NCBI GenBank assembly: GCA_043812935.1
Contig: JBDRLO010000040.1
Span: 7,779-71,778, forward strand
Direction of reading: 5' to 3'
Source of the DNA: Candidatus Omnitrophota bacterium
GTDB lineage: Bacteria > Omnitrophota > Gorgyraeia > Tantalellales > Tantalellaceae
DNA length: 64,000 nt
This document shows, in pieces, positions 211-62,900 of this stretch. The notes below the pieces were generated by a model. The model worked only from the letters and a program-made list of their open reading frames with translations, did not search any database and was not told the origin of the DNA. The position numbers and the translations under genes were made by a program. The number at the start of each line of letters is the position of its first letter. Position 1 is the stretch's first letter.

Positions 211-299
211 TGGTGCCGGAGGTGGGAGTCGAACCCACACGGGGGTTAAGCCCCACTGGATTTTGAGTCCAGCGCGTCTGCCAGTTTCACCACTCCGGC
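211..299 (-). tRNA. tRNA-Leu (anticodon CAA), long variable arm, CCA encoded
   Basis: Reverse complement reads GCCGGAG...GGTTCGACTCCCACCTCCGGCACCA. It has a 7-bp acceptor stem, anticodon stem CTGGA/TCCAG with loop CTCAAAA, and a long extra arm; 89 nt. Confidence 0.9.
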
Positions 300-411: not shown

Positions 412-487
412 GGGGCTGTAGCTCAGCTGGGAGAGCGCGTGCATGGCATGCATGAGGTCAGGGGTTCGATCCCCCTCAGCTCCACCA
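412..487 (+). tRNA. tRNA-Ala (anticodon GGC), CCA encoded
   Basis: GGGGCTGTAGCTCAGCTGGGAGAGCG...GGTTCGATCCCCCTCAGCTCCACCA. Anticodon stem CGTGC/GCATG with loop ATGGCAT; G3:U70-type Ala acceptor; 76 nt. Confidence 0.9.
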
Positions 488-11700: not shown

Positions 11701-11756
11701 TTTCGCCTCCATAATAAATTGTGTCATTTGCTAGTTCCTTCATTAAACATAGAATA

Positions 11757-11786
11757 AACCAGCTAACCGGCCAACTGGCTAACCAA
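11757..11786 (-). repeat. 8-nt-periodic GGTTAGCC-type array directly after the mnmE stop
   Basis: Minus strand TTGGTTAG CCAGTTGG CCGGTTAG CTGGTT. Confidence 0.6.
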
Positions 11787-11788
11787 AT

Positions 11789-24576: not shown

Positions 24577-24615
24577 AACTCCCTCCATTTAATGGTTAAT
24601 GGGGACTGGTTAATG

Positions 24616-24690
24616 GGGACAGCTACCATTTATTAAACAACAAAAAGCGGGAAACTAAGTTTTCTATTTTTAATAAATGGTAGCTGTCCC
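24616..24690 (-). repeat. 19-bp perfect-stem hairpin downstream of helicase copy A
   Basis: GGGACAGCTACCATTTATT (24616-24634) pairs with AATAAATGGTAGCTGTCCC (24672-24690); 37-nt loop. The minus-strand head reads TAGGGACAG, like the REP heads. Confidence 0.8.
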
Positions 24691-24693
24691 TAT

Positions 24694-26151
24694 TTATAAT
24701 TCTATAACCGGTTCATTTTCTGAATCGAATTCAGAATCAAGCATGCGGGAACTTGCCTGCCAGACTTCATAATCTTCGTCGGCAAGTTCTTCTAAAAACC
24801 GGCTTCGCGGCGCGCTTACAGCGCCTAACTGATAATCATAACGCATAGCGGGATGCACCATATATAAATATTTTCTAGCCCGTGTAACAGCAACATAAAA
24901 AAGACGTCTTTCTTCTTCCATTTCAGCTTCGCTATTCGATGATTTTGAATGAGGAAACTGCCCGTCACAAAGCCCTATAAGAAATACTGCATCCCACTCC
25001 AACCCTTTTGCCTGGTGAATAGTTGAAAGCACAAGTTGTCCGGTCTCTTCAGAAAATGAAAAAGCGTTTGTCTCCCCGCGGAAACCTTCCTGAAGAGACG
25101 TATCGTTAACAAAATCCTTAACTGTTTCATAATCATGTGAAAAATTCACAAGTTCGCGAATATCTTCAATTCGTTCTTTAGCATTTTCATACGCCGCTAA
25201 AACATGCATTTCATATCCTGAATCCAATATTCGTTCCACAATATCAGCAATGTTTGTTTCACCGCGAATATCCGAAGTTATTGCCCGCATTATTTTCTGA
25301 AAAACCGAATATCCTGCCTGCACTTTTGAGGGGAACACTCCAGACACATCATCAGAAACAAACTGGTTTATACTTTTACCTTCCTTTTTAAAACGTTCAT
25401 AAATCTTTGCGGCATATCCCGGACCGATACCAGGCCAAAGCGTCAAGGCCCTGATCCAGGAAGTTTCATCCAAAGGATTAGCCAGAATTTTCATGTATGC
25501 TAATACGTCTTTTATATGCGCTTGTTCAAAAAAACGAAGCCCCCCGCGAACAACATAAAAAATCCCTCGTTTAACCAGTTCCATTTCAAGTTCCGCAGAT
25601 TGATAATGCGCTCGAAAAAGAACAGCAATATTTTTTATATCAACACCTTCGTCCAAAAGCTCTTTTATCCTTTGGACGACAAAAGATGCCTGGGAATACA
25701 AATCTCTAACTTCAACAAGAGCGGGCATTGAAAGAGATTCATTCACGGTTTTCAGTTCTTTTTGAAACTGGTTATCATTATTTAAAAGTGAATCATTTGC
25801 AAGAGCAACAATTTCAGGAGTAGAACGGTAATTTGTTTCCAGTTTAAATACTTTTACATTATCAAACTTTTCAGGAAATTTAAGTATATTTTCGACTCGC
25901 GCGCCCCGGAAGGAATAAATAGACTGCGCGTCATCGCCCACTGCCAGAATATTTTTGTGTTTTTCGCCGAGAATATCAATTATTTCCGCCTGCAGATAAT
26001 TCGTATCCTGATATTCGTCAACCATTATATATTTAAACTTGTCACTAAACTTCTCTCTTACTTCTTTTACATTTTCCAGCAAATATTTCCAGTTAATCAA
26101 AAGATCGTCATAATCCATATTTTCTGTTTCGCGTTTTTTCTTTTCATACAT
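24694..26151 (-). CDS. UvrD/PcrA-family helicase, N-terminally truncated paralogous copy (lacks the Walker A domain)
   Basis: 485-aa intact ORF starting at MYEKKKRETENMDYDDLL, which aligns to about residue 195 of the upstream copy. Contains VDEYQDTN, TNYRST, TIHQAKGLEW and VAVTRA motifs. Confidence 0.75.
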   Translation of the reverse strand: MYEKKKRETENMDYDDLLINWKYLLENVKEVREKFSDKFKYIMVDEYQDTNYLQAEIIDILGEKHKNILAVGDDAQSIYSFRGARVENILKFPEKFDNVKVFKLETNYRSTPEIVALANDSLLNNDNQFQKELKTVNESLSMPALVEVRDLYSQASFVVQRIKELLDEGVDIKNIAVLFRAHYQSAELEMELVKRGIFYVVRGGLRFFEQAHIKDVLAYMKILANPLDETSWIRALTLWPGIGPGYAAKIYERFKKEGKSINQFVSDDVSGVFPSKVQAGYSVFQKIMRAITSDIRGETNIADIVERILDSGYEMHVLAAYENAKERIEDIRELVNFSHDYETVKDFVNDTSLQEGFRGETNAFSFSEETGQLVLSTIHQAKGLEWDAVFLIGLCDGQFPHSKSSNSEAEMEEERRLFYVAVTRARKYLYMVHPAMRYDYQLGAVSAPRSRFLEELADEDYEVWQASSRMLDSEFDSENEPVIEL

Positions 26152-26224
26152 ATCTTTAATTGTTTTAATTTCATTGAAAAATTTAAAAAAATAAGGAAAT
26201 CGTTCATCTAATACTTTTTAATGG

Positions 26225-26299
26225 GGGACAGCTACCATTTATTAAACAACAAAAAGCGGGAAACTAAGTTTTCTATTTTCAATAAATGGTAGCTGTCCC
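26225..26299 (-). repeat. second copy of the 19-bp-stem hairpin (downstream of helicase copy B)
   Basis: Same arms as 24616-24690 and the same 37-nt loop with one difference. Confidence 0.8.
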
Positions 26300-26321
26300 T
26301 ATTTATATACGTGGAACGCAT

Positions 26322-28365
26322 TCACAACTCTATTATGGGTTCTCTTTCTGAATCAAATTCTGGATTCAACATCTGGGAACTTGCCCGCCAGACTTCATAA
26401 TCTTCACCTGAAAGTTCTTCTAAAAACCGGCTTCGAGGCGCGCTTACGGTTCCCAACTGGTAATCATACCGAGTACACGGATGCATCATATATAGGTGTT
26501 TTTTTGCTCTTGTCACGGCAACATAAAAAAGACGTCTTTCTTCTTCCATTTCAGCGTCACTATTCGCTGACTTTGAATGCGGAAACTGTCCATCGCAAAG
26601 ACCGATGAGAAATACCGCATCCCATTCCAATCCTTTTGCCTGGTGTATGGTTGAAAGTACTAGCTGACTGGACTCTTCTGAAAACGAAAAAGCGTTTGTT
26701 TCGCCACGAAACCCCTTCCTGGAGAGAAGTATCACTCACAAAATCTTTAATCGTTTCATAATCGTGCGAAAAATTTACAAGTTCCCGAATGTCATCAATT
26801 CGTTCTTTCGCGTTTTCATACGTTGCTAAAACATGTGTTTCATACCCTAAATCTAATATGCGTTCCACTATGTCCGCTATATTTGTTTCGCCGCTTATGT
26901 CCGAAGTTATTGCTCTCATTATTTTTTGAAAGATTGAATACCCCGCGCGAACTCTTGCAGGAAACGCGATAGACACATCGTCCGAAACAAACCGGTTTAT
27001 ACTTATGTCTTGTTTTTTAAAAAATTCATAAATTTTCGAGGCATATCCCGGGCCGATCCCCGGCCAAAGGGTTAATGCCCTTATCCATGAAGTTTCATCC
27101 AGCGGATTAGCCAGAATCTTCATGTACGCTAACACGTCTTTTATGTGCGCTTGCTCAAAAAAACGCAGTCCCCCGCGAACAACGTAAGAAATCCCGCGTT
27201 TAACCAATCCCATTTCCAATTCCGCAGATTGATAATGTGCCCTAAAAAGAACGGCAATGTTTTTTATATCAACTCCCTCGTCCAAAAGTTCTTTTATTCT
27301 TTGGACAACAAAAGACGCCTGAGAATATAGATCTCTAACTTCAACAAGAGCAGGCATTGAAAGAGATTCATTCACTGTTTTTAATTCTTTTTGGAACTGG
27401 TTATCATTATTTAAAAGCGAATCATTAGCAAGCGCTACAATTTCAGGGGTAGACCTATAATTAGTTTCTAATTTAAATATTTTTACGTTATCGAATTTTT
27501 CGGGAAACTGTAATATGTTTTCGACCCGTGCCCCTCGAAAAGAATAAATAGATTGCGCATCGTCACCTACGGCCAAAATATTTCGATGTTTTCCGCCAAG
27601 AATATCAACTATCTCAGCCTGCATATAATTTGTGTCCTGGTACTCATCAACCATTATATACCTAAATTTGTTACTGAATTTTTCTCTTACTTCTTCTACG
27701 TTCTCAAGTAAATACTTCCATCTAAACAAAAGATCGTCATAATCCATGTTTTCTGTTTCGCGTTTTTTCTTTTCATACATATCTTTTATTTTGTTTATTT
27801 CGTCCTTGAATTTAAAAAAATAAGGATATCGCGCATCTAATACTTTTTCCAAAGTTCTTTTTGTGTTTACCGAAAGGCTTATTATCGCTTGCATCACAGA
27901 CGCCTTCGGAAACTTTTCGCCTTTAGGCAAGGCTTTAACAACTGTCTTCGTACAACTTTTTATCAAGTCACGTGAATCCTGCTGGTCTAAAATACCAAAA
28001 TCTCTTGTAAACCCTATCTTTTCAGCGTACATTCTGAGGGTTCTATTACCTACATGATGAAACGTTCCGCTCCACAACCCTTTCGGGCTATACCTTAAGA
28101 GTCTCTCCGTCCGTTCCCGCATTTCCCGAGCGGCTTTATTCGTAAAAGTCATAAGAAGTATATTTTGAGGAGGGACTCCCCGTTCTAAAAGATAGGCCAA
28201 CCTGTAAATCAAGGTTCTAGTTTTACCGCTTCCGGCACCCGCAAGGACAAGACAAGGCCCTTCCGCCTGCGTAACAACTTCATACTGTTGTTCGTTAAGG
28301 CTCTCCGCAAAATTTATGTGCGTTTCTATGGTTTCTGAACTTTCGTTTAGGATATATCTCTTCAT
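26322..28365 (-). pseudogene. UvrD/PcrA-family ATP-dependent DNA helicase, full length but interrupted by a 1-nt frameshift
   Basis: Walker A AGAGSGKT, VDEYQDTN, and so on. ORFs 26560-28365 and 26322-26735 overlap. Relative to copy A there is one extra C in the run at 26712-26715 (minus strand CAGGAAGGGGTTT versus CAGGAAGGTTTC). Confidence 0.8.
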
Positions 28366-43547: not shown

Positions 43548-43571
43548 GTAGGGGCAAGGCATGCCTTGCCC
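43548..43571 (+). repeat. REP-like palindrome
   Basis: GTAGGGGCAAGGCATGCCTTGCCC. Confidence 0.8.
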
Positions 43572-43588
43572 TTCTAAATACGTCATAG

Positions 43589-47523: not shown

Positions 47524-47589
47524 AGCGGGACAGGCATGCCTGTCCCCTACATCAATTAACCGACTAACCGGCTAACTGGCTAACCAAAA
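47524..47589 (-). repeat. composite post-stop element: 8-nt array plus REP palindrome acting as the fba terminator
   Basis: Minus strand after the stop: TTTTGGTTAG CCAGTTAG CCGGTTAG TCGGTTAA TTGATGTAGGGGACAGGCATGCCTGTCCCGCTTTTGTG. Confidence 0.8.
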
Positions 47590-51378: not shown

Positions 51379-52020
51379 TTATTTAAAGATACTACCCGTT
51401 TCATTAGACCAAAACAAAAGATCAAGCTCATCCGGAGGAATCTTAATACTTTTTGAGAATCTAATGAATTTTTCTTCCAGTTTTAGATATGCCTTTTTTG
51501 AAATAGTTTTAGGAGTTTTATTAATAACTTTATATTTTTCCAGGTTCCGTAATACATGAACATCTAATATCGCTAGTTTTTTCCCAAACCCAATATTTCT
51601 CAAAAAATGACTTGCTTCCTTAAACCCAATTCCTTTAACATTCTTCACAAACCATTCTCTTGTTGCCGGAATATTATTTATGTTCACTTTATCTTTTATT
51701 TTCAATTTTCCATTAACATTAAAAAGTTTTCGCGATTCAAAGATATAACCGGCTTTGTTAGTAGGAAACCTTACGCCCCTCAACCCTGCCTTAAGTTCCC
51801 GTAGAGTCCCATTAAAAAGAATTCTTTTTCTTGTCAGCGTTTGAACCGCTTTATCACACTGCGCCGCTCTTGACTGGGGCGTACATATACAGAAACATAA
51901 TTCGCTAAATACTGCCTCATCCGGCTGTTTCCACTTATTTTTAAACTCTTTTAACCGTTTTTGTATTTCACTTTTCTTTTTTTTATATTTCCCTGTTAAA
52001 TCTTTTGTTATTTCAGGCAT
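51379..52020 (-). CDS. ogg: 8-oxoguanine DNA glycosylase/AP lyase (Ogg2-type HhH-GPD)
   Basis: ELCFCICTPQS, GVRFPNKAGYI-like, and HhH GIGFKEASHFLRNIG with downstream ILDVH. Confidence 0.8.
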   Translation of the reverse strand: MPEITKDLTGKYKKKKSEIQKRLKEFKNKWKQPDEAVFSELCFCICTPQSRAAQCDKAVQTLTRKRILFNGTLRELKAGLRGVRFPTNKAGYIFESRKLFNVNGKLKIKDKVNINNIPATREWFVKNVKGIGFKEASHFLRNIGFGKKLAILDVHVLRNLEKYKVINKTPKTISKKAYLKLEEKFIRFSKSIKIPPDELDLLFWSNETGSIFK

Positions 52021-52196
52021 TCTATAAGTTCCTCGGCAATTTTAATATGTTCAATTTCATCGTCGCGTATTTCTATTAACTGTTCTTTTATATCTTCCGT
52101 TTCTACTTGTTCTATATAGTGATCATAAAAATATTTGGCTCTTCTTTCCATCTCTAATATTTCTTTAAACTGTTTTAAAAGCATTTCAGTAGTCAT
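52008..52196 (-). CDS. small two-helix protein with an ExxH half-site (ferritin-like half domain?)
   Basis: 62 aa; EMERRAKYFYDHY and DDEIEHIKIAEEL. Overlaps both neighbouring genes (translational-coupling type overlaps). Confidence 0.5.
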   Translation of the reverse strand: MTTEMLLKQFKEILEMERRAKYFYDHYIEQVETEDIKEQLIEIRDDEIEHIKIAEELIECLK

Positions 52197-52428
52197 TTTT
52201 TGTGTCCTTTTCTATTCTATCCGCGATCTTCTCAATAATTTCTCCATGGCGGGATGAATCCTTATACAACTTGGTTAAGCTTTTTCGTATTTTACTTTTA
52301 GCCTCTTCGCTTAAACTCTCAGTTTCATTTACTACAGCTTTAGAAAAATTAGCAAAAAAAGTAACCATGCTTTCTTCCACATGTTTCATCTCGTTTATCC
52401 CGGCAAGCAATCTTTGTTTGCTTATCAT
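52186..52428 (-). CDS. small helical protein, unknown function
   Basis: 80 aa, predicted all-helical (HVEESMVTFF, SSRHGEIIEKI). 11-nt overlap with the next ORF. Confidence 0.45.
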   Translation of the reverse strand: MISKQRLLAGINEMKHVEESMVTFFANFSKAVVNETESLSEEAKSKIRKSLTKLYKDSSRHGEIIEKIADRIEKDTKNDY

Positions 52429-52432
52429 TTAT

Positions 52433-53344
52433 CTATCCTCTTTTATTTAAAAATCTGAATACTTCAAGCGCGGCTTTCGCGCCTTCACCCGCGGCAATAA
52501 TTATCTGTTTTTGAGCGACATTAGTAACGTCACCTGCCGCGAAAATTCCGGGAACACTTGTTTCAGTCCGGCAATTAACAACAATTTCACCATGTTTATT
52601 CTTTTCTATATCTTTTATAAATTCAGAATTCGGAATAAGGCCAATCTCCACGAAAACCCCTTGTACCGACAATTCTTTTTGAGACCCGTTCTTTCTATAC
52701 TTTAATCCTTGAACCAGTTTCTGCCCAAAAATTTCCGTTACTTCCGCGCTGTTTATTGCCGAAAACCTATCTGCTTTCATTAGTTTTTCCCGCATAACAG
52801 CGTCACCACCAAGTTCTGACGTAATATTTATAACATAAACTTTTTTCGCGATTTTTACAAGCTGTAACCCGGCATCAAGCGCAGAATTGCCTCCTCCTAT
52901 CACAGCAACGTCTTTGGATTCAAAAAGCGGACCGTCACAAGTAGCGCAATATGTTAAACCTTTATTTTTAAACTCTTTTTCGCCCGGAACCCCAAGTTCT
53001 TTCGACTTTTTGCCTGAAGCTATTATTGCTGTTTTAGCAAAATAGGTATTTTTATTCGTTTGGACGCAAACAACTTCATCTTCTTTCCACAATTTTATTA
53101 CAGGTTCATTTTCTTTCACCTCAATAGCGTATTTTTTCATATGTTCTTCAAACTTAGACGCTAGTTCAATTCCTGTAATAAACTGATATCCCGTATAGTT
53201 TTCAATATCACCGCTCCATGCCGTCTGCCCGCCTATATCACCTGTAACAACAAGACAATCCATCTTTTTCCGGGAAGCATAAACCGCCGCGGTTATACCC
53301 GCAGGCCCTGCTCCTAGAATAATTAAATCATATATTTTTTTCAT
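52433..53344 (-). CDS. trxB: thioredoxin-disulfide reductase-like flavoprotein
   Basis: LIILGAGPAGITAAVYA, redox CATCDGPLF, VIGGGNSALDAG and AAGDV motifs. Confidence 0.85.
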   Translation of the reverse strand: MKKIYDLIILGAGPAGITAAVYASRKKMDCLVVTGDIGGQTAWSGDIENYTGYQFITGIELASKFEEHMKKYAIEVKENEPVIKLWKEDEVVCVQTNKNTYFAKTAIIASGKKSKELGVPGEKEFKNKGLTYCATCDGPLFESKDVAVIGGGNSALDAGLQLVKIAKKVYVINITSELGGDAVMREKLMKADRFSAINSAEVTEIFGQKLVQGLKYRKNGSQKELSVQGVFVEIGLIPNSEFIKDIEKNKHGEIVVNCRTETSVPGIFAAGDVTNVAQKQIIIAAGEGAKAALEVFRFLNKRG

Positions 53345-53427
53345 ATTTATCTACATTTCAGGTTCCACGCCACACACTACACGTTTTGCATCCAGTACAA
53401 CCCCGGGGATTGTCTTACAAATTGTCC

Positions 53428-53493
53428 GGGCGGGGAAACCCCGCCCCTACACTACAAAAACGGCTAACCGGCGAACCAATCAACCAGCCAGCC
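53428..53493 (-). repeat. composite post-stop element (8-nt array overlapping the grx 3-prime end plus REP palindrome)
   Basis: Minus strand GGCTGGCT GGTTGATT GGTTCGCC GGTTAGCC G TTTTTGTAGTGTAGGGGCGGGGTTTCCCCGCCC. Confidence 0.75.
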
Positions 53494-53719
53494 CTAATGC
53501 TTGTTTAATTTTATCTTTATCAAAACCTACGATAATTTCACCTTCAATATCTATAACCGGCACTCCCATTTGCCCGGTTTTTTCAACGACTTCCTGAAGC
53601 CGAGCCTGGTCCGCGGCAACATCTATATCTTCAAAAGGTATATTTTGATCCTTAAAAAACTGTTTTGCTTTTACGCAAAACGGACATGCTGCCGTTCCGT
53701 ATACTTTAACATTCTTCAT
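53480..53719 (-). CDS. glutaredoxin-like protein (YruB/NrdH type)
   Basis: 79 aa; VYGTAACPFC active site and GVPVI motif. Confidence 0.85.
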   Translation of the reverse strand: MKNVKVYGTAACPFCVKAKQFFKDQNIPFEDIDVAADQARLQEVVEKTGQMGVPVIDIEGEIIVGFDKDKIKQALGLAG

Positions 53720-54191
53720 TTCTCCCCCTTAATTCACAAAGTTTTTTTAAATGATTTTTTTCCTCTTGAACAAGCTTATCTATAAGCCTCCGGTCATTTT
53801 CCGAAACCATTTGACGCATACCTTCATAGAAAAGAATCGAATCCTTTTCAAACCCAATACCCAGTTTCAATGCCTCATCAGAGTTTTTCAACTTTTCTGC
53901 AACTGTTTTTCCTGTATTTTTCCGGGTAAAAACATATTGCGATGCTAACGCGTTCATATACGCGAAATATTCGTCAGGATAGGCTTCTTTAGGAACATAG
54001 CTGCATGCTGTCGCAAAAATATCATTAAATATTTCTACGTGTTTTTCTTCTTCAGTCTCGAGGCATTTAAAAACTTCTCCTGCGGGTTCCTTTTTAAACT
54101 TCTCTGAAAGTTCCGAATAAAACTCTTTCCCGTTTTTTTCTATCTGTATTCCCATTTCAATTATTTCACACCCTGAAAAATGTTTTTGCAT
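53706..54191 (-). CDS. ferritin-like diiron protein (rubrerythrin-type domain without the rubredoxin tail)
   Basis: Ligand pattern E..., EEEKHVEIF, FEKDSILFY, EEKNHLKKL. Confidence 0.75.
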   Translation of the reverse strand: MQKHFSGCEIIEMGIQIEKNGKEFYSELSEKFKKEPAGEVFKCLETEEEKHVEIFNDIFATACSYVPKEAYPDEYFAYMNALASQYVFTRKNTGKTVAEKLKNSDEALKLGIGFEKDSILFYEGMRQMVSENDRRLIDKLVQEEKNHLKKLCELRGRNEEC

Positions 54192-54226
54192 TTATGTCTC
54201 CGTTTCTTTTCAAAAACAAACATTTA

Positions 54227-54802
54227 TCAATACGTTTCACAGAAAACTTCATAATAACTCTGCGGATGCGCGCATGCAGGACACTCTTCCGGAGCTGCTT
54301 TTCCTGTATGTATATACCCGCAATTCCGGCACTTCCATTTTACTACGGTATCTTTTTCAAAAACCTTGTTTTCTTTAACATTTTTCAATAATTTACGATA
54401 CCTTGCTTCGTGCTGTTCTTCAACTTCCGCGATTTCTTTAAAAACATCCGCGATTTCCGTGAATCCTTCTTCTCTGGCAATACTCTCGGCATTCTTATAA
54501 AGAGTTGTCCATTCCAGGTTTTCACCATTTGCCGCGGCTTTAAGATTTGCAGGTGTATCTCCTATAACACCTGCCGGATACGCCGCCTGTATTTCGATTT
54601 CTCCGCCTTCCAAAAATTTAAAAAACCTTTTTGCGTGTTCTTTTTCATTGTCAGCTGTCTCAAGAAATATAGCCGCAATTTGTTCATATCCGGCTTTACG
54701 CGCCACACTGGCAAAATAAGTGTATCTGTTTCTTGCCTGTGATTCCCCGGCAAAAGATGCAAGAAGGTTTTTTTCTGTTTTTGTCCCTTTTATGCTGTTC
54801 AT
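54227..54802 (-). CDS. rbr: rubrerythrin
   Basis: KGTKTEKNLLASFAGESQARNRY, EKEHAK, and the C-terminal CRNCGY...CPACAHP rubredoxin-like domain. Confidence 0.93.
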   Translation of the reverse strand: MNSIKGTKTEKNLLASFAGESQARNRYTYFASVARKAGYEQIAAIFLETADNEKEHAKRFFKFLEGGEIEIQAAYPAGVIGDTPANLKAAANGENLEWTTLYKNAESIAREEGFTEIADVFKEIAEVEEQHEARYRKLLKNVKENKVFEKDTVVKWKCRNCGYIHTGKAAPEECPACAHPQSYYEVFCETY

Positions 54803-54823
54803 AATCGCACTCCTTTATTTTAT

Positions 54824-54837
54824 GTTGTATGTACAAC
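54824..54837. promoter_or_regulatory. 6-2-6 palindrome just upstream of the rbr ribosome-binding site
   Basis: GTTGTA-TG-TACAAC, 22 nt from the rbr ATG. Confidence 0.35.
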
Positions 54838-54845
54838 CTTGTACC

Positions 54846-54993
54846 GGACAGGCTCGGGGGCCTGTCCCTACACTAACTAACTGGATCGGCGTCGAAGGAC
54901 AGGCTCGGGGGCCTGTCCCTACACTAACTAACTGGATCGGCATCGAAGGACAGGCTCGGGGGCCTGTCCCTACATCAATTAACTAGCTAACTG
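54846..54993 (-). repeat. three tandem REP units (51-bp period) plus GTTAG-type tail, between dfx and rbr
   Basis: GGACAGGCTCGGGGGCCTGTCCCTAC at 54846, 54897 and 54948. The 25-nt linker ACTAACTAACTGGATCGGC(G/A)TCGAA is repeated. The tail reads ATCAATTAACTAGCTAACTG. Confidence 0.9.
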
Positions 54994-54997
54994 TTTT

Positions 54998-55375
54998 TTA
55001 TACTTTCCAGAGGCCATGCACTGTACAGAATTCTCTGACTTCCTGTATTTCTGATTTCAAAAGGCAAACTTCGGCTTCCGGAGCCTGCCCGGGTTTTAAC
55101 TCTACACGTATAACTCTATCGTCACTTAAAACCTCTATGAACTTTATATAATGTTTTTCTTCCATCGGATGCGGCACACTCCCGATTTTTACCTTTGTTC
55201 CGGCATCTGTTTCTTCCATCACGGGAACGTGTTTTTCTTTTCCTTCGTCTTCTGTTTTTGCTTCTAACTTTTTCATTGGCTCATCACAACACACCAAGGA
55301 AGGCGCACCTTCATGAGTTATTTCAACCACATTTCCGCAAATTTCACATCGATACAATTCTCTAAGCCGGGTCAT
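54998..55375 (-). CDS. dfx: desulfoferrodoxin (2Fe superoxide reductase)
   Basis: N-terminal desulforedoxin YRCEICGNVVEI...VCCDEPM. Centre II ligands KHVPV, HPMEEKHYI and CTVHGLW. Confidence 0.92.
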   Translation of the reverse strand: MTRLRELYRCEICGNVVEITHEGAPSLVCCDEPMKKLEAKTEDEGKEKHVPVMEETDAGTKVKIGSVPHPMEEKHYIKFIEVLSDDRVIRVELKPGQAPEAEVCLLKSEIQEVREFCTVHGLWKV

Positions 55376-55390
55376 AATCCCCTCCCTTTT

Positions 55391-55885
55391 TTAATCCATC
55401 GTTCGTTTTGCCAACTCTTTATCAATTATCATTAATTTCTCATTATCTTTATCAGCAGATTTAATTTTATTTAACACTGCTGCTGCATTGCTCTCTTCTT
55501 CAACCTGTTCTTTCACAAACCACTGTAAGAAATCTTCCGCGGCTTTATCGTTCTCCATCTTAGCGGTATTAATAAGATTATCTATAAGTTTTGTAACTTT
55601 TTTTTCATGACTTAAAGTTTTTTCAAAAAGATCAGTTGCAGAAGTAAAATTTTGCGGAGGCTCATCTACTGTTTTAAATATCACTCTTTCCTCTTTCGCA
55701 TTCACATACTCATATAGCTTCCTCGCATGGGCCAATTCTTCCCGTACCTGCACATTAAACCAGTTAGCTATCCCTTCTAAGCCCTTGGATTTAGCATAAC
55801 TTGCCATTGCCAAATATAAATAGGCAGAATATATCTCTTTATTTATCTGATCATTAAAATTAGCTAACAATTCAGGGCTTAACAT
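55391..55885 (-). CDS. ftn: non-heme ferritin
   Basis: LNDQINKEIYSAYLYLAMASY, EELAHARK and FLQWFVKEQVEEE motifs. Confidence 0.9.
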   Translation of the reverse strand: MLSPELLANFNDQINKEIYSAYLYLAMASYAKSKGLEGIANWFNVQVREELAHARKLYEYVNAKEERVIFKTVDEPPQNFTSATDLFEKTLSHEKKVTKLIDNLINTAKMENDKAAEDFLQWFVKEQVEEESNAAAVLNKIKSADKDNEKLMIIDKELAKRTMD

Positions 55886-55949
55886 AATAACCTTCCTTAT
55901 CCTCTATTTACTCCATATTCCCGCATTCCCGAGATTGAAGCATTATTTG

Positions 55950-56087
55950 TTACATTTCTTCAAACTGATCTTTCCCCGCACCGCATTCAGGACAAACCCA
56001 GTCTTCAGGAAGATCCGCAAATTCGACATTATCATTTTCTGATGGGTCATATACATACCCGCACACTATACATTTATATTTTTTCAT
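55950..56087 (-). CDS. rd: rubredoxin
   Basis: [15 protein letters not shown]...[16 protein letters not shown]. The listed ORF is extended to 56141, but the SD AAGGAT sits before the ATG at 56087. Confidence 0.9.
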
Positions 56088-56106
56088 AACTTTTATCCTT
56101 TTTTTT

Positions 56107-56151
56107 TGCGGAAAAACTGATACCGGGCGGTTAACTTGCACCCGGCATCAG
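56107..56151 (-). terminator. intrinsic-terminator-like hairpin about 20 nt upstream of the rubredoxin start codon
   Basis: Minus strand CUGAUGCCGGG-(13-nt loop)-CCCGGUAUCAG followed by UUUUU. Confidence 0.65.
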
Positions 56152-56181
56152 CCCCATTAAAGTTTAATAGACAGTTTAGCG

Positions 56182-56259
56182 TCATATCCTGGACAAGATA
56201 GAACAACCTTCTTTGCAGTGCGCAACAGGGCGCAGCATATACCTCACTATAACTTTCAT
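56182..56259 (-). CDS. 25-codon ORF with a strong SD (leader peptide or small Cys-containing protein)
   Basis: AAAAGGAGGAGCAAATG, then MKVIVRYMLRPVAHCKEGCSILSRI. It lies between a REP and the terminator hairpin. Confidence 0.4.
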   Translation of the reverse strand: MKVIVRYMLRPVAHCKEGCSILSRI

Positions 56260-56304
56260 TTGCTCCTCCTTTTAATGAGACCATAACGTACACGACTGTA
56301 CGCC

Positions 56305-56329
56305 GTAGGGGCGAGGCATGCCTCGCCCC
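56305..56329 (+). repeat. REP-like palindrome
   Basis: GTAGGGGCGAGGCATGCCTCGCCCC. Confidence 0.8.
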
Positions 56330-56479
56330 TATATGGTCGAATTAACCTCAACCCCCTTTTATGGGATGAGAGGTTATATGCTTTTTTTATAGCTTCCCTT
56401 TCTTAAGAGATACTGATTTAAAAAGCTTTGTCAAGTCTAGCGGTAATATTAATAATAAAAAAAGAGGGTGGGGACAGCT

Positions 56480-56528
56480 AAAAAACAACAGCTGCCATTT
56501 AATTGTTTTTCAATTAAATGGCAGCTGT
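56480..56528 (-). terminator. Rho-independent terminator of gdhA
   Basis: 18-bp stem ACAGCTGCCATTTAATTG / CAATTAAATGGCAGCTGT with a 5-nt loop, then UGUUUUUU on the minus strand. Confidence 0.85.
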
Positions 56529-56555
56529 ACCTGTTTTAGCACTCAATACAAAAGT

Positions 56556-57905
<1,350 letters not shown>

Positions 57906-59792: not shown

Positions 59793-59902
59793 GGACAGGC
59801 ACAGGAGCCCTATACCACGCAGGGTATAGGGCAAGACCTGTCCCTACCGGCAAACCAACCAGCAAAACAGCAAACCGGCTAACTGGCCAACCGGCTAACC
59901 AA
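59793..59902 (-). repeat. composite post-stop element: seven 8-nt units plus nested-hairpin REP
   Basis: Minus strand after the stop: TTGGTTAG CCGGTTGG CCAGTTAG CCGGTTTG CTGTTTTG CTGGTTGG TTTGCCGG TAGGGACAGGtcttgCCCTATACCctgcgtGGTATAGGGctcctgtgCCTGTCC. Confidence 0.85.
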
Positions 59903-62900
59903 TCACCCCGCCACCTTCACTCCGTTACGGCCGCTTTCTTTAACGTCATATAACGCTTTATCCGCTTCTTCCAAAAGTTTTATCCGGTCTGTGCCGTCTT
60001 CCAGTTCTGAAATGCCTATACTTACCGTCACTTTTAATTCTTCTTCTCCGCTCCGGCCCGCGTATTTCACCTTATGTATTTCAACTGCCCGTCTTATACG
60101 GTCAGCAATCCTTCGGCTGGCCTCTTTTCCGGTTTCCGGCATTACTGCCACAAATTCATCTCCACCGTATCTCGCGGACAAATCGCTTTTTCTCAAGTTG
60201 TTCATAATCAAATCAGATACGCTTCTTATAACCAAATCTCCCACTTGATGCCCATACCGGTCATTAAAATCTTTAAAATGATCTATATCTATCATCATTA
60301 CACTTAATCGTTTTCCATATCTTTTTGCCTGTTCAACGCTTTTCATTAAATAGTTTTCAAAAAATACGTGGTTATATAATCCCGTCAATCCGTCCGTAAC
60401 GGCTCTCTTATATAATCTCGCGTTTTCGATTGATACTCCTGCCTGGCTTGCAATTAAATGCAGCACCCATAAATCTTCCCGGGTAAATAGCCCCTTAACT
60501 AAATGGTTATCAAGATATATTACTCCTATCATTTCTCTTCTGGCTTTTATGGGCACGCATAATACCGACCTCAATCCTGACCTGACTACACTTACTTTAT
60601 TCTTCAGCTCTTCATCTGCTGACGCGTCTTCTATTATCACAGCTTCTTTTTGCCTCTCCACGCGTTCTATAACACTTCGGCTCACCTCAAAAGAGTCAGC
60701 ATTATGCCTTTCTGATTCTATATTTTTTACTACTTTTATATCTAATTCCCGTTTCGCTGTTTTTTCTTCGGGATACATTAAAAGTATCCCCCGTTCCGCG
60801 CCCACCAACTCAATTGTCTTCTCCATTATCTTCTCTAAAAGCTCATCCATATCCAACACAGAACTGATATACCTGCTTGTATCCAATACGGCTATCATTT
60901 TTCGTTCAGTTTCCAACTTCTCCTGCTGTGTTAACGCTTTCTGTTCTTCTATTATTACTTCTTCTTTTGTGCCTAAAAACACCTGTGTTTTATCTTCATA
61001 AAGTTTCGCTCCGATTTCTTTGAATATATCGTAAGCTTCCCTAACTCGGGTTCTTGACTCGTCTTCCCTCCCAACCTTTTTCAAAAACCTGCCGTACTCA
61101 TACATGGTTCTTGCTTCTTCAAATCTACGTCCAATACGACTCGTATGCGCGATACTTTTTAGAAAATAGTTTTCTGCCGTCCGGTTTTTTTCGAGTAACG
61201 AATAATACTCTCCTGCGGCTCTTAACGCGCCGCCATAATGGTTTATCCATTTACTGGTTTTCCGTAACGCAGCTTCAACTGCTTTTTTAATTTTTCTTAA
61301 TTGTTCTTTCGGATCTTGTCCGGTGCTATTTTTATACTGTTCTATATATGCTTCCGCTAAATAAACATAAAGATACGTTGTATAATTTTTAAGAAAATTA
61401 TTTTCCTCCCTTAATTTTCTGCCTTTTTCCAATAATTCTATTGCTTTTTCCCAATTACCTGCCATGTATTCCGCGTATCCCAAATTAATGGCAGTGAAAC
61501 AAAATATAAACCAGATTTTTTCCGTACGGCTCAATTCAAGAGCTTTTTCACCATATTCCCGAGATTTTTGGATATCCCCTTTCTCCGCGTAAATAAGGCA
61601 TAACCAGCCTTGAGCATCGCTAATACCATAATTATCGTTTGTTTTATAGACTTCTCTGAAAAATTCCAGAAAAACAAGCAATGCCTTATCATGCAAACCG
61701 TTAAAAAAATAACTATGCCCCAGGCCCTGAACTGCTAAACTCAATTCCCACATATCTCCGATCTTTTTAAAAATATCCCTGCTTTCCTGAAAATACCTGC
61801 AGCTTTTCCGGTATTCCCCTGTCCATTGAAACAAATAACCCATAAACCTTAACGACTGTCCCAGACCTCTTTCATCTCTCATTTCTTTGGCAATAGCTAA
61901 AGCTTTTTTCTGATAACGCATAGCACGTTTAAAAAACGGAATCGTTGAGCAAGCCGCGGAATAGAAACTGATACTTGTCTGCAAGAGTGATGATTTAAAA
62001 AGTTTTGCTTCACTCAGGTTAAGAACTCTTAAAACCACCCATAAAAGACGCGTTATATCGCTGAAAACATATGTCCAGCCCAAAGCTATGTATCCTTTAA
62101 GTGTTTCTATATATTTTTCCTGAACAATTTTGTCTTTTTTCGAAACAAAAACTATGGGGAAAACACAATGAAGAATATGAACAAACAATTCTTTCGCCAA
62201 AAAACCCATCAACATAGATTCAGTAACGGGAAGTTTTTCGCCTAAATAAGAAAACCCTGCCGCAATATTTTTCTCGCAATTCTCCCAATCACCTTTTTTC
62301 CAATAAGCTTCACCGATTCTTCGATAAATAGTATTCTTTTCCAAAGGGTTTGTTTTAAGAGGCAATATCTGTTTAGAAATATTAATAGCTTCATCATTTT
62401 TTCCGATAATTAAATAAACTTCAGTTAGGCCCTCTTTCGCTTTTATCCATTTAGCCTGGCCCTCTAATTTTTTTTCTTCTAAAATTTTTAATACGATTTG
62501 ATAATATTTTATCGCCTCTTCATTTGCATAATCTTCTTTAGCTTTTTCGGCTGCCGGCAAACAATACTCCAGCATTTTTTCATTATCGCCGCCTTCAACA
62601 TAATGATGCGTCAAATCAAACAAAATCTCTTCTTTGTCTCCTCTGTGTAATTTTTCCAGAACTTTTGCCACTTTTAAATGCAATTCTCTTTTTTTTCTGT
62701 CGCCTATTTCTTTATAAAAAGCGTCTTTTATCCTGTCATGCACAAAAAGTATCTCGCCGCGCCATGTACTTTTCTCCAAAAGCTGCAATTCTACTGCTTT
62801 ATCCACCAATGTTATTATTTCTTCCATGGGTTTCCCTATCAGCGCATACAAAAGTTCCATCTTAAATTTTCTACCGATTACCGCGGCCGCTGACAATAAC

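Follow-up and report, generated by a model that had tools for sequence, protein, structure and literature searches.

In a 64-kb stretch of contig JBDRLO010000040.1 from a Candidatus Omnitrophota bacterium (64,000 nt in full, called the window below), a 25-codon open reading frame (ORF) lies directly in front of the rubredoxin gene rd. Conservation among related genomes shows that this micro-ORF is a genuine protein-coding micro-gene, belonging to an unannotated family that extends across Candidatus Omnitrophota. In the account that we prefer, and in which we place about even confidence, it is a new micro-protein gene of a redox and iron-sulfur (Fe-S) stress regulon, which would encode a trans-acting product, carry a cis-acting RNA pseudoknot at its 3' end and be followed in the window by a leaky terminator. 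An initial annotation of the window had taken the short ORF and the hairpin behind it for a peptide leader that controls rd, the ferritin gene ftn and the desulfoferrodoxin gene dfx by attenuation, and had named an independent micro-protein gene as fallback. It is the fallback that fits the data better.

Conservation of the micro-ORF as a protein-coding sequence

The micro-ORF (MKVIVRYMLRPVAHCKEGCSILSRI, 25 codons and TGA, 56259-56182 on the minus strand) is preceded by the Shine-Dalgarno (SD) sequence AGGAGG (56270-56265, minus strand), which is read directly from the window and ends 5 nt before the ATG. The initial annotation had pointed out both, and they were found on the minus strand exactly where it had placed them. 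At the SD position the family consensus carries a purine-rich GGAGG-like block. Because the ORF listing of the window holds dozens of short ORFs, a 25-codon ORF alone does not rise above chance, and it was judged real because of the comparison with other genomes.

For this comparison, metagenomes were scanned with the peptide of the window and that of locus L001, which belongs to a related Omnitrophota metagenome-assembled genome (the sister genome, with a ferritin 80% identical to that of the window). The scan returned 345 loci encoding a relative. Of these 80 were fetched, and the statistics on the core refer to 78 distinct metagenomic loci. Residues Y7 to C19, Y-M-L-R-P-V-[A/T]-H-C-K-E-G-C, are essentially invariant. 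Over the 13 codons of this core the summed entropy is 1.9, 0 and 14.4 bits at codon positions 1, 2 and 3, respectively, and the third positions are saturated: Leu and Arg are each written with all six of their codons, and Pro, Val and Ala each with all four. For Ser20 both AGT and TCT occur, and the protein-constrained part of the micro-ORF spans approximately codons 1-20.

The ORF of L001 differs from that of the window by seven synonymous changes and one conservative change (V to I), and a stop-to-Gly change adds two codons to it. The gene order of both genomes is the same (gdhA, ORF, hairpin, rd, ftn, dfx and the rubrerythrin gene rbr). The micro-ORF was also present in all four loci that were ascertained via an Rrf2 neighbour and not via the peptide, one of which encodes a variant with A13T and S20P. 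All named relatives of the genes next to the micro-ORF are from Candidatus Omnitrophota. No second copy of the micro-ORF was found in the window or in four clusters of 20 kb.

We conclude that the ORF is coding because its 345 homologous loci show a synonymous-only substitution pattern. The same pattern refutes the view that ORF and hairpin arose by chance and have no function, for which the abundance of short ORFs in the window could be cited; the z-scores of the hairpin (-4.3 and -5.9) and its orthologous conservation refute it as well, and its probability is practically negligible.

Three variants of the peptide had no match in Pfam (E cut-off 0.01), NCBIfam, PHROGs or the PDB (E cut-off 10), and the exact peptide is missing from a collection of approximately 15 billion proteins. 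A full-text literature search returned nothing relevant on the micro-ORF.

A candidate pseudoknot at the 3' end of the ORF

Unlike the core, the last approximately six codons and 7 nt of the 3' untranslated region (UTR) are conserved as nucleotides. From codon 22 onward the third positions in TCC, nGG and GnA are invariant, codon 24 alternates between Arg and Trp and codon 26 between Arg and stop, and the adjacent bases are fixed. Past the micro-ORF stop UAAACUGCCC is conserved, and nothing is conserved after nt 91 (numbered from the ATG of the micro-ORF, as are all pseudoknot positions). This 3' end is constrained as RNA and not as protein, and it covaries as a 27-nt H-type pseudoknot (56169..56195, minus strand), a candidate structure with moderate support. 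Stem S1 pairs nt 65-68 with 77-80 (window 56195-56192 with 56183-56180) and stem S2 pairs nt 71-75 with 87-91 (window 56189-56185 with 56173-56169), so that the candidate structure encloses both the TGA (56184-56182) and a second in-frame TAA (56178-56176, minus strand).

Covariation was tested in 73 distinct loci, aligned without gaps, using 500 shuffles and slid partners as controls. Of the cells in S1 and S2, 94.7% are paired, compared with 30-49% for slid partners. Both-sided changes were seen in six of the nine pairs (32 cells), a result that none of the 500 shuffles matched. In an all-against-all mutual-information scan the pair 66:79 ranked first (60 times G:C and 13 times C:G, without exception), and the scan also found 71:91 and 73:89, which are fully complementary. 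A nested helix (nt 51-54 with 88-91 and nt 58-60 with 85-87) was rejected, as 88.8% of its cells are paired but its covariation lies within that of the shuffles (429 of 500).

The distance between core and knot is fixed, with zero indels from the core to nt 91 in any locus. The position of the stop varies: most loci have it at codon 26 or 28, L073 has it at codon 22 and L043 has lost it, and in the latter two loci the bases of the pseudoknot are kept. In 510 kb of sequence all 86 pseudoknot-like sites are attached to a micro-ORF, and no free-standing site was found.

No Rfam 15 family matched the micro-ORF element, either in the window, which was scanned as a whole at the gathering thresholds, or at relaxed E-value cut-offs of 10 for the window region 55900-56600 and of 0.1-1 for 20 related loci. 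A product of frameshifting or read-through was rejected, as the sequence upstream (GAG GGC UGC AGU) holds no slippery heptamer, no extended frame is conserved and the next gene lies at distances that vary modulo 3. A selenocysteine insertion sequence (SECIS) was likewise rejected; the UGA at codon 26 alternates with the Arg codons CGA and AGA and never with Cys codons.

In four loci (L020, L027, L045 and L062) the pseudoknot is interrupted exactly after the UAAAC of its loop by insertions of approximately 55-80 nt that resemble miniature inverted-repeat transposable elements (MITE) or repetitive extragenic palindromes (REP). They show TTAAAC-like duplications, and the 3' strand of S2 reappears past the insertion.

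The micro-gene as a floating cistron of a stress supercluster

Gene neighbourhoods show that the micro-gene is a floating cistron of a supercluster for Fe-S, oxidative and nitrosative stress, whose gene set comprises rrf2, hcp, fprA, rd, ftn, dfx, rbr, grx, trxB, ogg, nifSU and msrAB. In at least 43 of the 82 pattern-ascertained loci and in all four Rrf2-ascertained loci, the micro-ORF immediately precedes the gene of a three-Cys Rrf2 regulator, and this pair is usually followed by genes for a Fer4 protein, a Zn-ribbon protein, Hcp and a reductase. Positions before rubredoxin were found in the window, L001, L050, L056 and L061. Elsewhere the micro-ORF directly follows rrf2, with a Tpx-like peroxiredoxin gene behind it (L076), or it comes right after hcp (L027), right after nifS-nifU (L073 and L077), or after the YHS gene in an msrA-msrB-YHS-ORF-rrf2 operon (L087). 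In a whole clade it stands right after ogg and before a glycoside hydrolase family 5 (GH5) gene, and in L016 it follows ogg as the last cistron, with a terminator behind it and nothing further on the same strand. The large clusters L083 and L086-L088 have a single copy of the micro-ORF before rrf2, and their rd lies kilobases downstream without a copy. Other downstream genes encode GH5, iron-dependent alcohol dehydrogenase (Fe-ADH), cupin and DsbD-like proteins. The idea of a dedicated rd leader fails against this distribution, since the micro-ORF is mostly found upstream of rrf2, may also follow rrf2, hcp, ogg or nifU, and can be the last gene. The redox or metal link that the initial annotation had suspected for the His/Cys-containing peptide is in line with the surrounding stress genes.

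From the micro-ORF stop to the next start the median distance is 41 nt and the minimum 14 nt (76 distinct loci). In approximately ten loci the next start codon follows 14-21 nt past the stop, and several of these genes have no obvious SD. The GH5 gene, of a cellulase family, starts 14-23 nt past the stop in most members of one Omnitrophota clade (L038, L046, L052, L054, L063, L067, L070 and L078), with L054 and L067 farther away at approximately 45-55 nt. The short gap and the lack of an obvious SD before GH5 suggest that translation of the glycoside hydrolase is obligatorily coupled to that of the stress-cluster micro-ORF.

We also considered that the peptide might supply missing Fe-S ligands to Rrf2 and rejected this, as the neighbouring Rrf2 proteins retain C92, C99 and C105. 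Approximately 250 nt upstream of the micro-ORF of L035, on the opposite strand, a cyclic di-GMP-I riboswitch was found (RF01051, 58.7 bits, L035:168-255, minus strand).

Gene order and pseudoknot together can also be read as a cis-acting module in which nascent peptide and pseudoknot form a translational sensor, a possibility that we regard as real but doubtful. The invariant peptide would then act in the ribosome exit tunnel, the pseudoknot would pause the ribosome with G18 and C19 in the P and A sites, and an oxidant, nitric oxide (NO), a metal or a thiol metabolite would modulate the pause, which would alter the next cistron (usually rrf2) or, in the window, read-through of the terminator. 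With its 21-35 aa the peptide would stay inside the tunnel until release, and its thirteen contiguous residues, invariant throughout the phylum, form a block that ends at codon 19-20. A gap of 7 nt separates codon 19 from the 5' edge of S1 (nt 65), the spacer length at which pseudoknots canonically pause ribosomes, as known from -1 frameshift signals, and no core-pseudoknot indel occurs in any locus though the stop position moves. The frequent position directly in front of rrf2, even inside operons (YHS-ORF-rrf2), and the loci with a close next start and no obvious SD suit such a module too, but the last-cistron position in L016 and the heterogeneous downstream genes do not. In addition, the downstream SD lies outside the pseudoknot in most loci, at the median spacing given above, and the peptide is without a known arrest motif. 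That invariant peptide and pseudoknot constitute one translational stress sensor, which sets the expression of the Rrf2 regulon across Omnitrophota, seems unlikely to us. In such a co-sensor the ribosome would meet the pseudoknot just as ...AHCKEG-C reaches the peptidyl-transferase centre, and the nascent chain in the tunnel with its His and Cys, or the released peptide of 25-27 aa bound back to its own RNA, would respond to an oxidant, NO or a metal.

A terminator-like hairpin between micro-ORF and rubredoxin

The GC-rich hairpin followed by UUUUU that the initial annotation had described before rubredoxin was confirmed; it has 14-17 bp and a 9-nt loop (56151-56117, minus strand) and is directly followed by the U5 tract (56116-56112, minus strand). 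The terminator scan had missed it because of its loop limit of 8 nt. The minimum free energy of the hairpin is -26.3 kcal/mol, compared with -14.8 +/- 2.7 kcal/mol for 200 shuffles, none of which was as good (z -4.3). The orthologous hairpin of L001 reaches -28.6 kcal/mol and is followed by a U4 tract; at the place of the U5 tract L001 has AGUUUUCU. L001 retains the outer stem GAUGCCGGG/CCCGGxAUC with one G-U changed to G-C and has other inner pairs and another loop, with compensatory changes. With a GC-rich stem-loop and a U tract of at least four, the hairpin has the sequence features of an intrinsic terminator and is a credible, lineage-specific one. As for conservation in relatives, a check that had been proposed for ORF and hairpin alike, the ORF was recovered in the sister locus L001 and throughout the family. 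The hairpin is kept in L001 but, together with a U tract, follows the ORF in only five of 76 distinct loci (the window, L001, L061, L016 and L027). A strong hairpin stands at this place in L056 too, but no U tract follows it.

The rubredoxin gene (55950..56087, minus strand; Pfam PF00301, E 8.9e-15) is the first large downstream cistron. Its SD, AGGA (56099-56096, minus strand), lies outside the gene coordinates, and its ATG at 56087 stands 24 nt past the U tract. Because this gap is too short for a promoter, transcription of rd has to cross the hairpin; on this point, and on the passage of rd-ftn-dfx transcription through a terminator-like signal, the initial annotation was right.

Promoter, short ORF with strong SD, hairpin and first structural gene in series, without room for another promoter, form the layout of classical leader-peptide attenuation, in which the position of the ribosome would choose between terminator and antiterminator, and L001 has the same layout. 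Nevertheless we consider this mechanism for rd-ftn-dfx very improbable. In the nascent-leader folds of the window and L001 no antiterminator was common to both; the sole candidate, a 6-bp long-range pairing in the window, is missing from L001 and was rejected. The micro-ORF stop codon lies 31 nt upstream of the hairpin stem, so that a terminating ribosome cannot reach the hairpin. Moreover, there are no tandem regulatory codons, the downstream genes serve detoxification of reactive oxygen species (ROS) and Fe-S metabolism, and the peptide is conserved as a sequence, unlike codon-counting leaders. The rarity of the hairpin in the family also speaks against attenuation, and we infer that the terminator is not part of a classical leader-peptide attenuator.

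The hairpin might instead be a REP-type intercistronic element that stabilises the micro-gene mRNA or protects a processed 5' end of rd. The genome is rich in GC-rich intercistronic palindromes, with three units between dfx and rbr and one in the 5' UTR of the micro-ORF, and the hairpin of L056 without a U tract would suit this role. We rate it as quite unlikely, as the hairpin lies outside any dispersed repeat family, and is followed by U5 (U4 in L001) like canonical terminators, and as L061, L016 and L027 likewise have a hairpin plus U tract. A dispersed REP or MITE was also rejected as its origin; the motif ATGCCGG..CCGGYAT occurs only at the window hairpin, at the orthologous site of L001 and at an unrelated site (635-655).

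Proposed function and points against it

In the account of a trans-acting micro-protein that we prefer, the peptide (core YMLRPVAHCKEGC, with H14, C15 and C19) would be a redox- or metal-related product that is co-expressed with the stress regulon. The pseudoknot would tune translation, termination or mRNA fate of the micro-gene and, in some lineages, would couple translation to the next gene 14-21 nt downstream. As a leaky intrinsic terminator, the hairpin would keep the short transcript of the micro-gene in large excess over the mRNA that reads through into rd-ftn-dfx. The trans action, the metal or redox chemistry and the leakiness of the terminator are what we infer.

Several points weigh against this account. 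Translation, the 3' end of the transcript and the pseudoknot are all deduced from sequence. The invariance of residues 9-16 is partly due to ascertainment because these residues belonged to the search pattern; Y7, M8, E17, G18 and C19 were outside of it. The covariation comprises approximately eight independent compensatory events, so that support for the pseudoknot is moderate and not overwhelming, and the signal of 66:79 stems largely from one clade. The copy in the window is weak, with three G-U, three A-U and three G-C pairs, and by nested folding the region is thermodynamically undistinguished, as expected of a weak pseudoknot. Finally, shortness, invariance and a constant distance from an RNA structure are also compatible with a peptide that acts while nascent in the ribosome.

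Predicted promoters and operators, and layout of the locus

Upstream of the micro-ORF, gdhA (57902-56556, minus strand) ends at a strong bidirectional terminator (56528-56488, terminator scan). It is followed by a predicted promoter/operator block, CAGACTTGACAAAGCTTTTTAAATCAGTATCTCTTAAGAAAGGGAAGC (56392..56438, minus strand), with a -35 element TTGACA (56434-56429, minus strand), a 16-nt spacer and a -10-like TATCTC (56412-56407, minus strand). This block is identical in 46 of 47 nt between window and L001 (56392-56438 and L001:1633-1679) and is far more conserved than the synonymous sites of the nearby ORF, which differ. The window geometry TTGACA-N16-TATCTC matches the TTGACA-N16-TATCAT promoter of related loci. 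The block is probably an operator, whose regulator would be PerR/Fur-like by its composition, and the micro-gene of this lineage, with its own predicted promoter, heads the genes rd-ftn-dfx-rbr. An AT-rich motif, TTATTAATAxT, lies just upstream of the block.

Between block and micro-ORF the window carries a lineage-specific insertion of approximately 113 nt in the 5' UTR (56279..56391, minus strand), which is absent from L001 in the pairwise alignment and contains the REP-like GC palindrome GGGGCGAGGCATGCCTCGCCCC (56329-56308). A related palindrome was found at 43551-43572.

Most loci in which the micro-ORF has its own promoter share cTTGACAAATGATACnnnnaTGGTATCATT, a 10-3-10 palindrome over spacer and -10 (L083:9810-9840; approximately 50-90 nt upstream of the micro-ORF in L003-L082; L087:8118-8146). 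It heads most micro-ORF/rrf2 operons as well as the msrA-msrB-YHS-ORF-rrf2 operon and is likely the operator of the adjacent Rrf2 regulator. Window and L001 have neither an adjacent rrf2 nor this palindrome.

Within the micro-ORF, codons 3-5 read GTT ATA GTG or GTT ATA ATA (Thr4 to Ile) and create TATAGT or TATAAT in this lineage only (window 56246-56275, minus strand; L001:1706-1714). The window site was flagged as -10-like by the scan, and it could be a candidate internal promoter of rd.

Downstream of rubredoxin the stress cluster continues on the same strand (51379..55885, minus strand; Pfam) with genes for ferritin, desulfoferrodoxin, rubrerythrin, a rubrerythrin-like protein, glutaredoxin, a thioredoxin-reductase-like protein, small proteins of 80 and 62 aa, of which one has a weak DUF2383 match, and 8-oxoguanine glycosylase. 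Between dfx and rbr three tandem REP-like units of 51 nt (54846-54998) each contain the palindrome GGACAGGCTCGGGGGCCTGTCC, to which the GC palindromes at 56308-56329 and 43551-43572 are related.

Further repeats are spread over the window. Intergenic runs with an 8-nt period, GCTAACCGG/CCAACTGG-like, lie at 11753-11787, 47554-47588, 53446-53488 and 59853-59903. At 24615-27013 a tandem duplication of approximately 1.6 kb (80-82% identity) is flanked by 84-nt units that are 99% identical to each other, and each unit folds as a long AT-rich hairpin with the cap GGGGACAGCTACC/GGTAGCTGTCCC. Two tRNA genes (214-299, minus strand, and 412-484, plus strand) are the only Rfam gathering-level matches in the window.

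Comparison with known systems

The micro-gene is kin to conserved bacterial micro-ORFs and regulatory upstream ORFs. With regulatory nascent (arrest) peptides such as TnaC, SecM, MifM, SpeFL and the Erm leaders it shares an ORF of no more than about 20-35 codons behind a strong SD, a conserved amino-acid sequence, a transcript in common with the following genes and RNA structure near the 3' end of the ORF. Unlike them, it lacks the known arrest motifs (RAGP, RAPP, W-x3-D-x7-P and the like), and its pseudoknot overlaps the end of the ORF, whereas theirs is a hairpin that masks the next SD or a Rho utilisation (rut) site. It can also be an internal or the last cistron.

In the IncI/IncB plasmid systems repY-repZ and repB-repA, translation and termination of a short leader ORF remodel a pseudoknot near the stop codon and thereby affect the next cistron. 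A short ORF with a pseudoknot close to its stop is common to both cases. However, the plasmid pseudoknot involves the downstream ribosome-binding region and the sequence of the leader peptide is unimportant, whereas the peptide of the micro-ORF is invariant and its pseudoknot is a local one of 27 nt, separated from the next SD by usually 30-50 nt.

By its size the pseudoknot resembles compact H-type pseudoknots of 28-34 nt, that is the luteoviral -1 frameshift signals of the beet western yellows virus (BWYV) type and the preQ1-I riboswitch aptamer. Like these it has interleaved stems, of 4 and 5 bp, a 2-nt loop 1, a 1-nt junction and an A-rich 6-nt loop 3 (UUAAAC), which could run along the minor groove of stem 1. 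It differs from them in having no slippery heptamer, no extended frame and no Rfam match, and its downstream genes are unrelated to queuosine.

The smallest iron-Cys proteins of anaerobic ROS defence are rubredoxin (approximately 45-54 aa) and desulforedoxin (36 aa, a homodimer). The micro-gene likewise encodes a tiny Cys-containing product among rd, dfx and rbr, and it is conceivable by analogy that two peptide chains share a metal site via H14, C15 and C19. The peptide has no sequence similarity to these proteins, however, and contains two Cys and one His, with a C-x3-C spacing as opposed to their C-x2-C knuckles.

In attenuators with an intrinsic terminator inside an operon, too, a GC-rich stem with its U tract separates a short first cistron of high expression from longer genes; here the predicted signal is confined to this lineage and a small number of further loci.

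Significance for Omnitrophota

The anaerobes of the phylum Omnitrophota are distributed worldwide and uncultivated, and many of them have very small cells. The micro-gene provides a concrete handle on their sensing and survival of stress by oxygen, NO and iron, and it is small enough for synthesis. Its peptide of 25-27 residues is more conserved than almost any protein and is fused to a covarying candidate pseudoknot, beside an Rrf2 regulator and within the main ROS and Fe-S stress cluster of the phylum. Part of this phylum-wide, unannotated gene is constrained as both protein and RNA. Its absence from the large protein collection illustrates that such genes are systematically missed by gene callers. 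Should the peptide act in trans, it may rank as the smallest member of the rubredoxin/desulforedoxin world. Action in cis would make it a regulatory nascent peptide of a new type, and as a co-sensor it would found a new class in which nascent peptide and RNA sense redox stress together.

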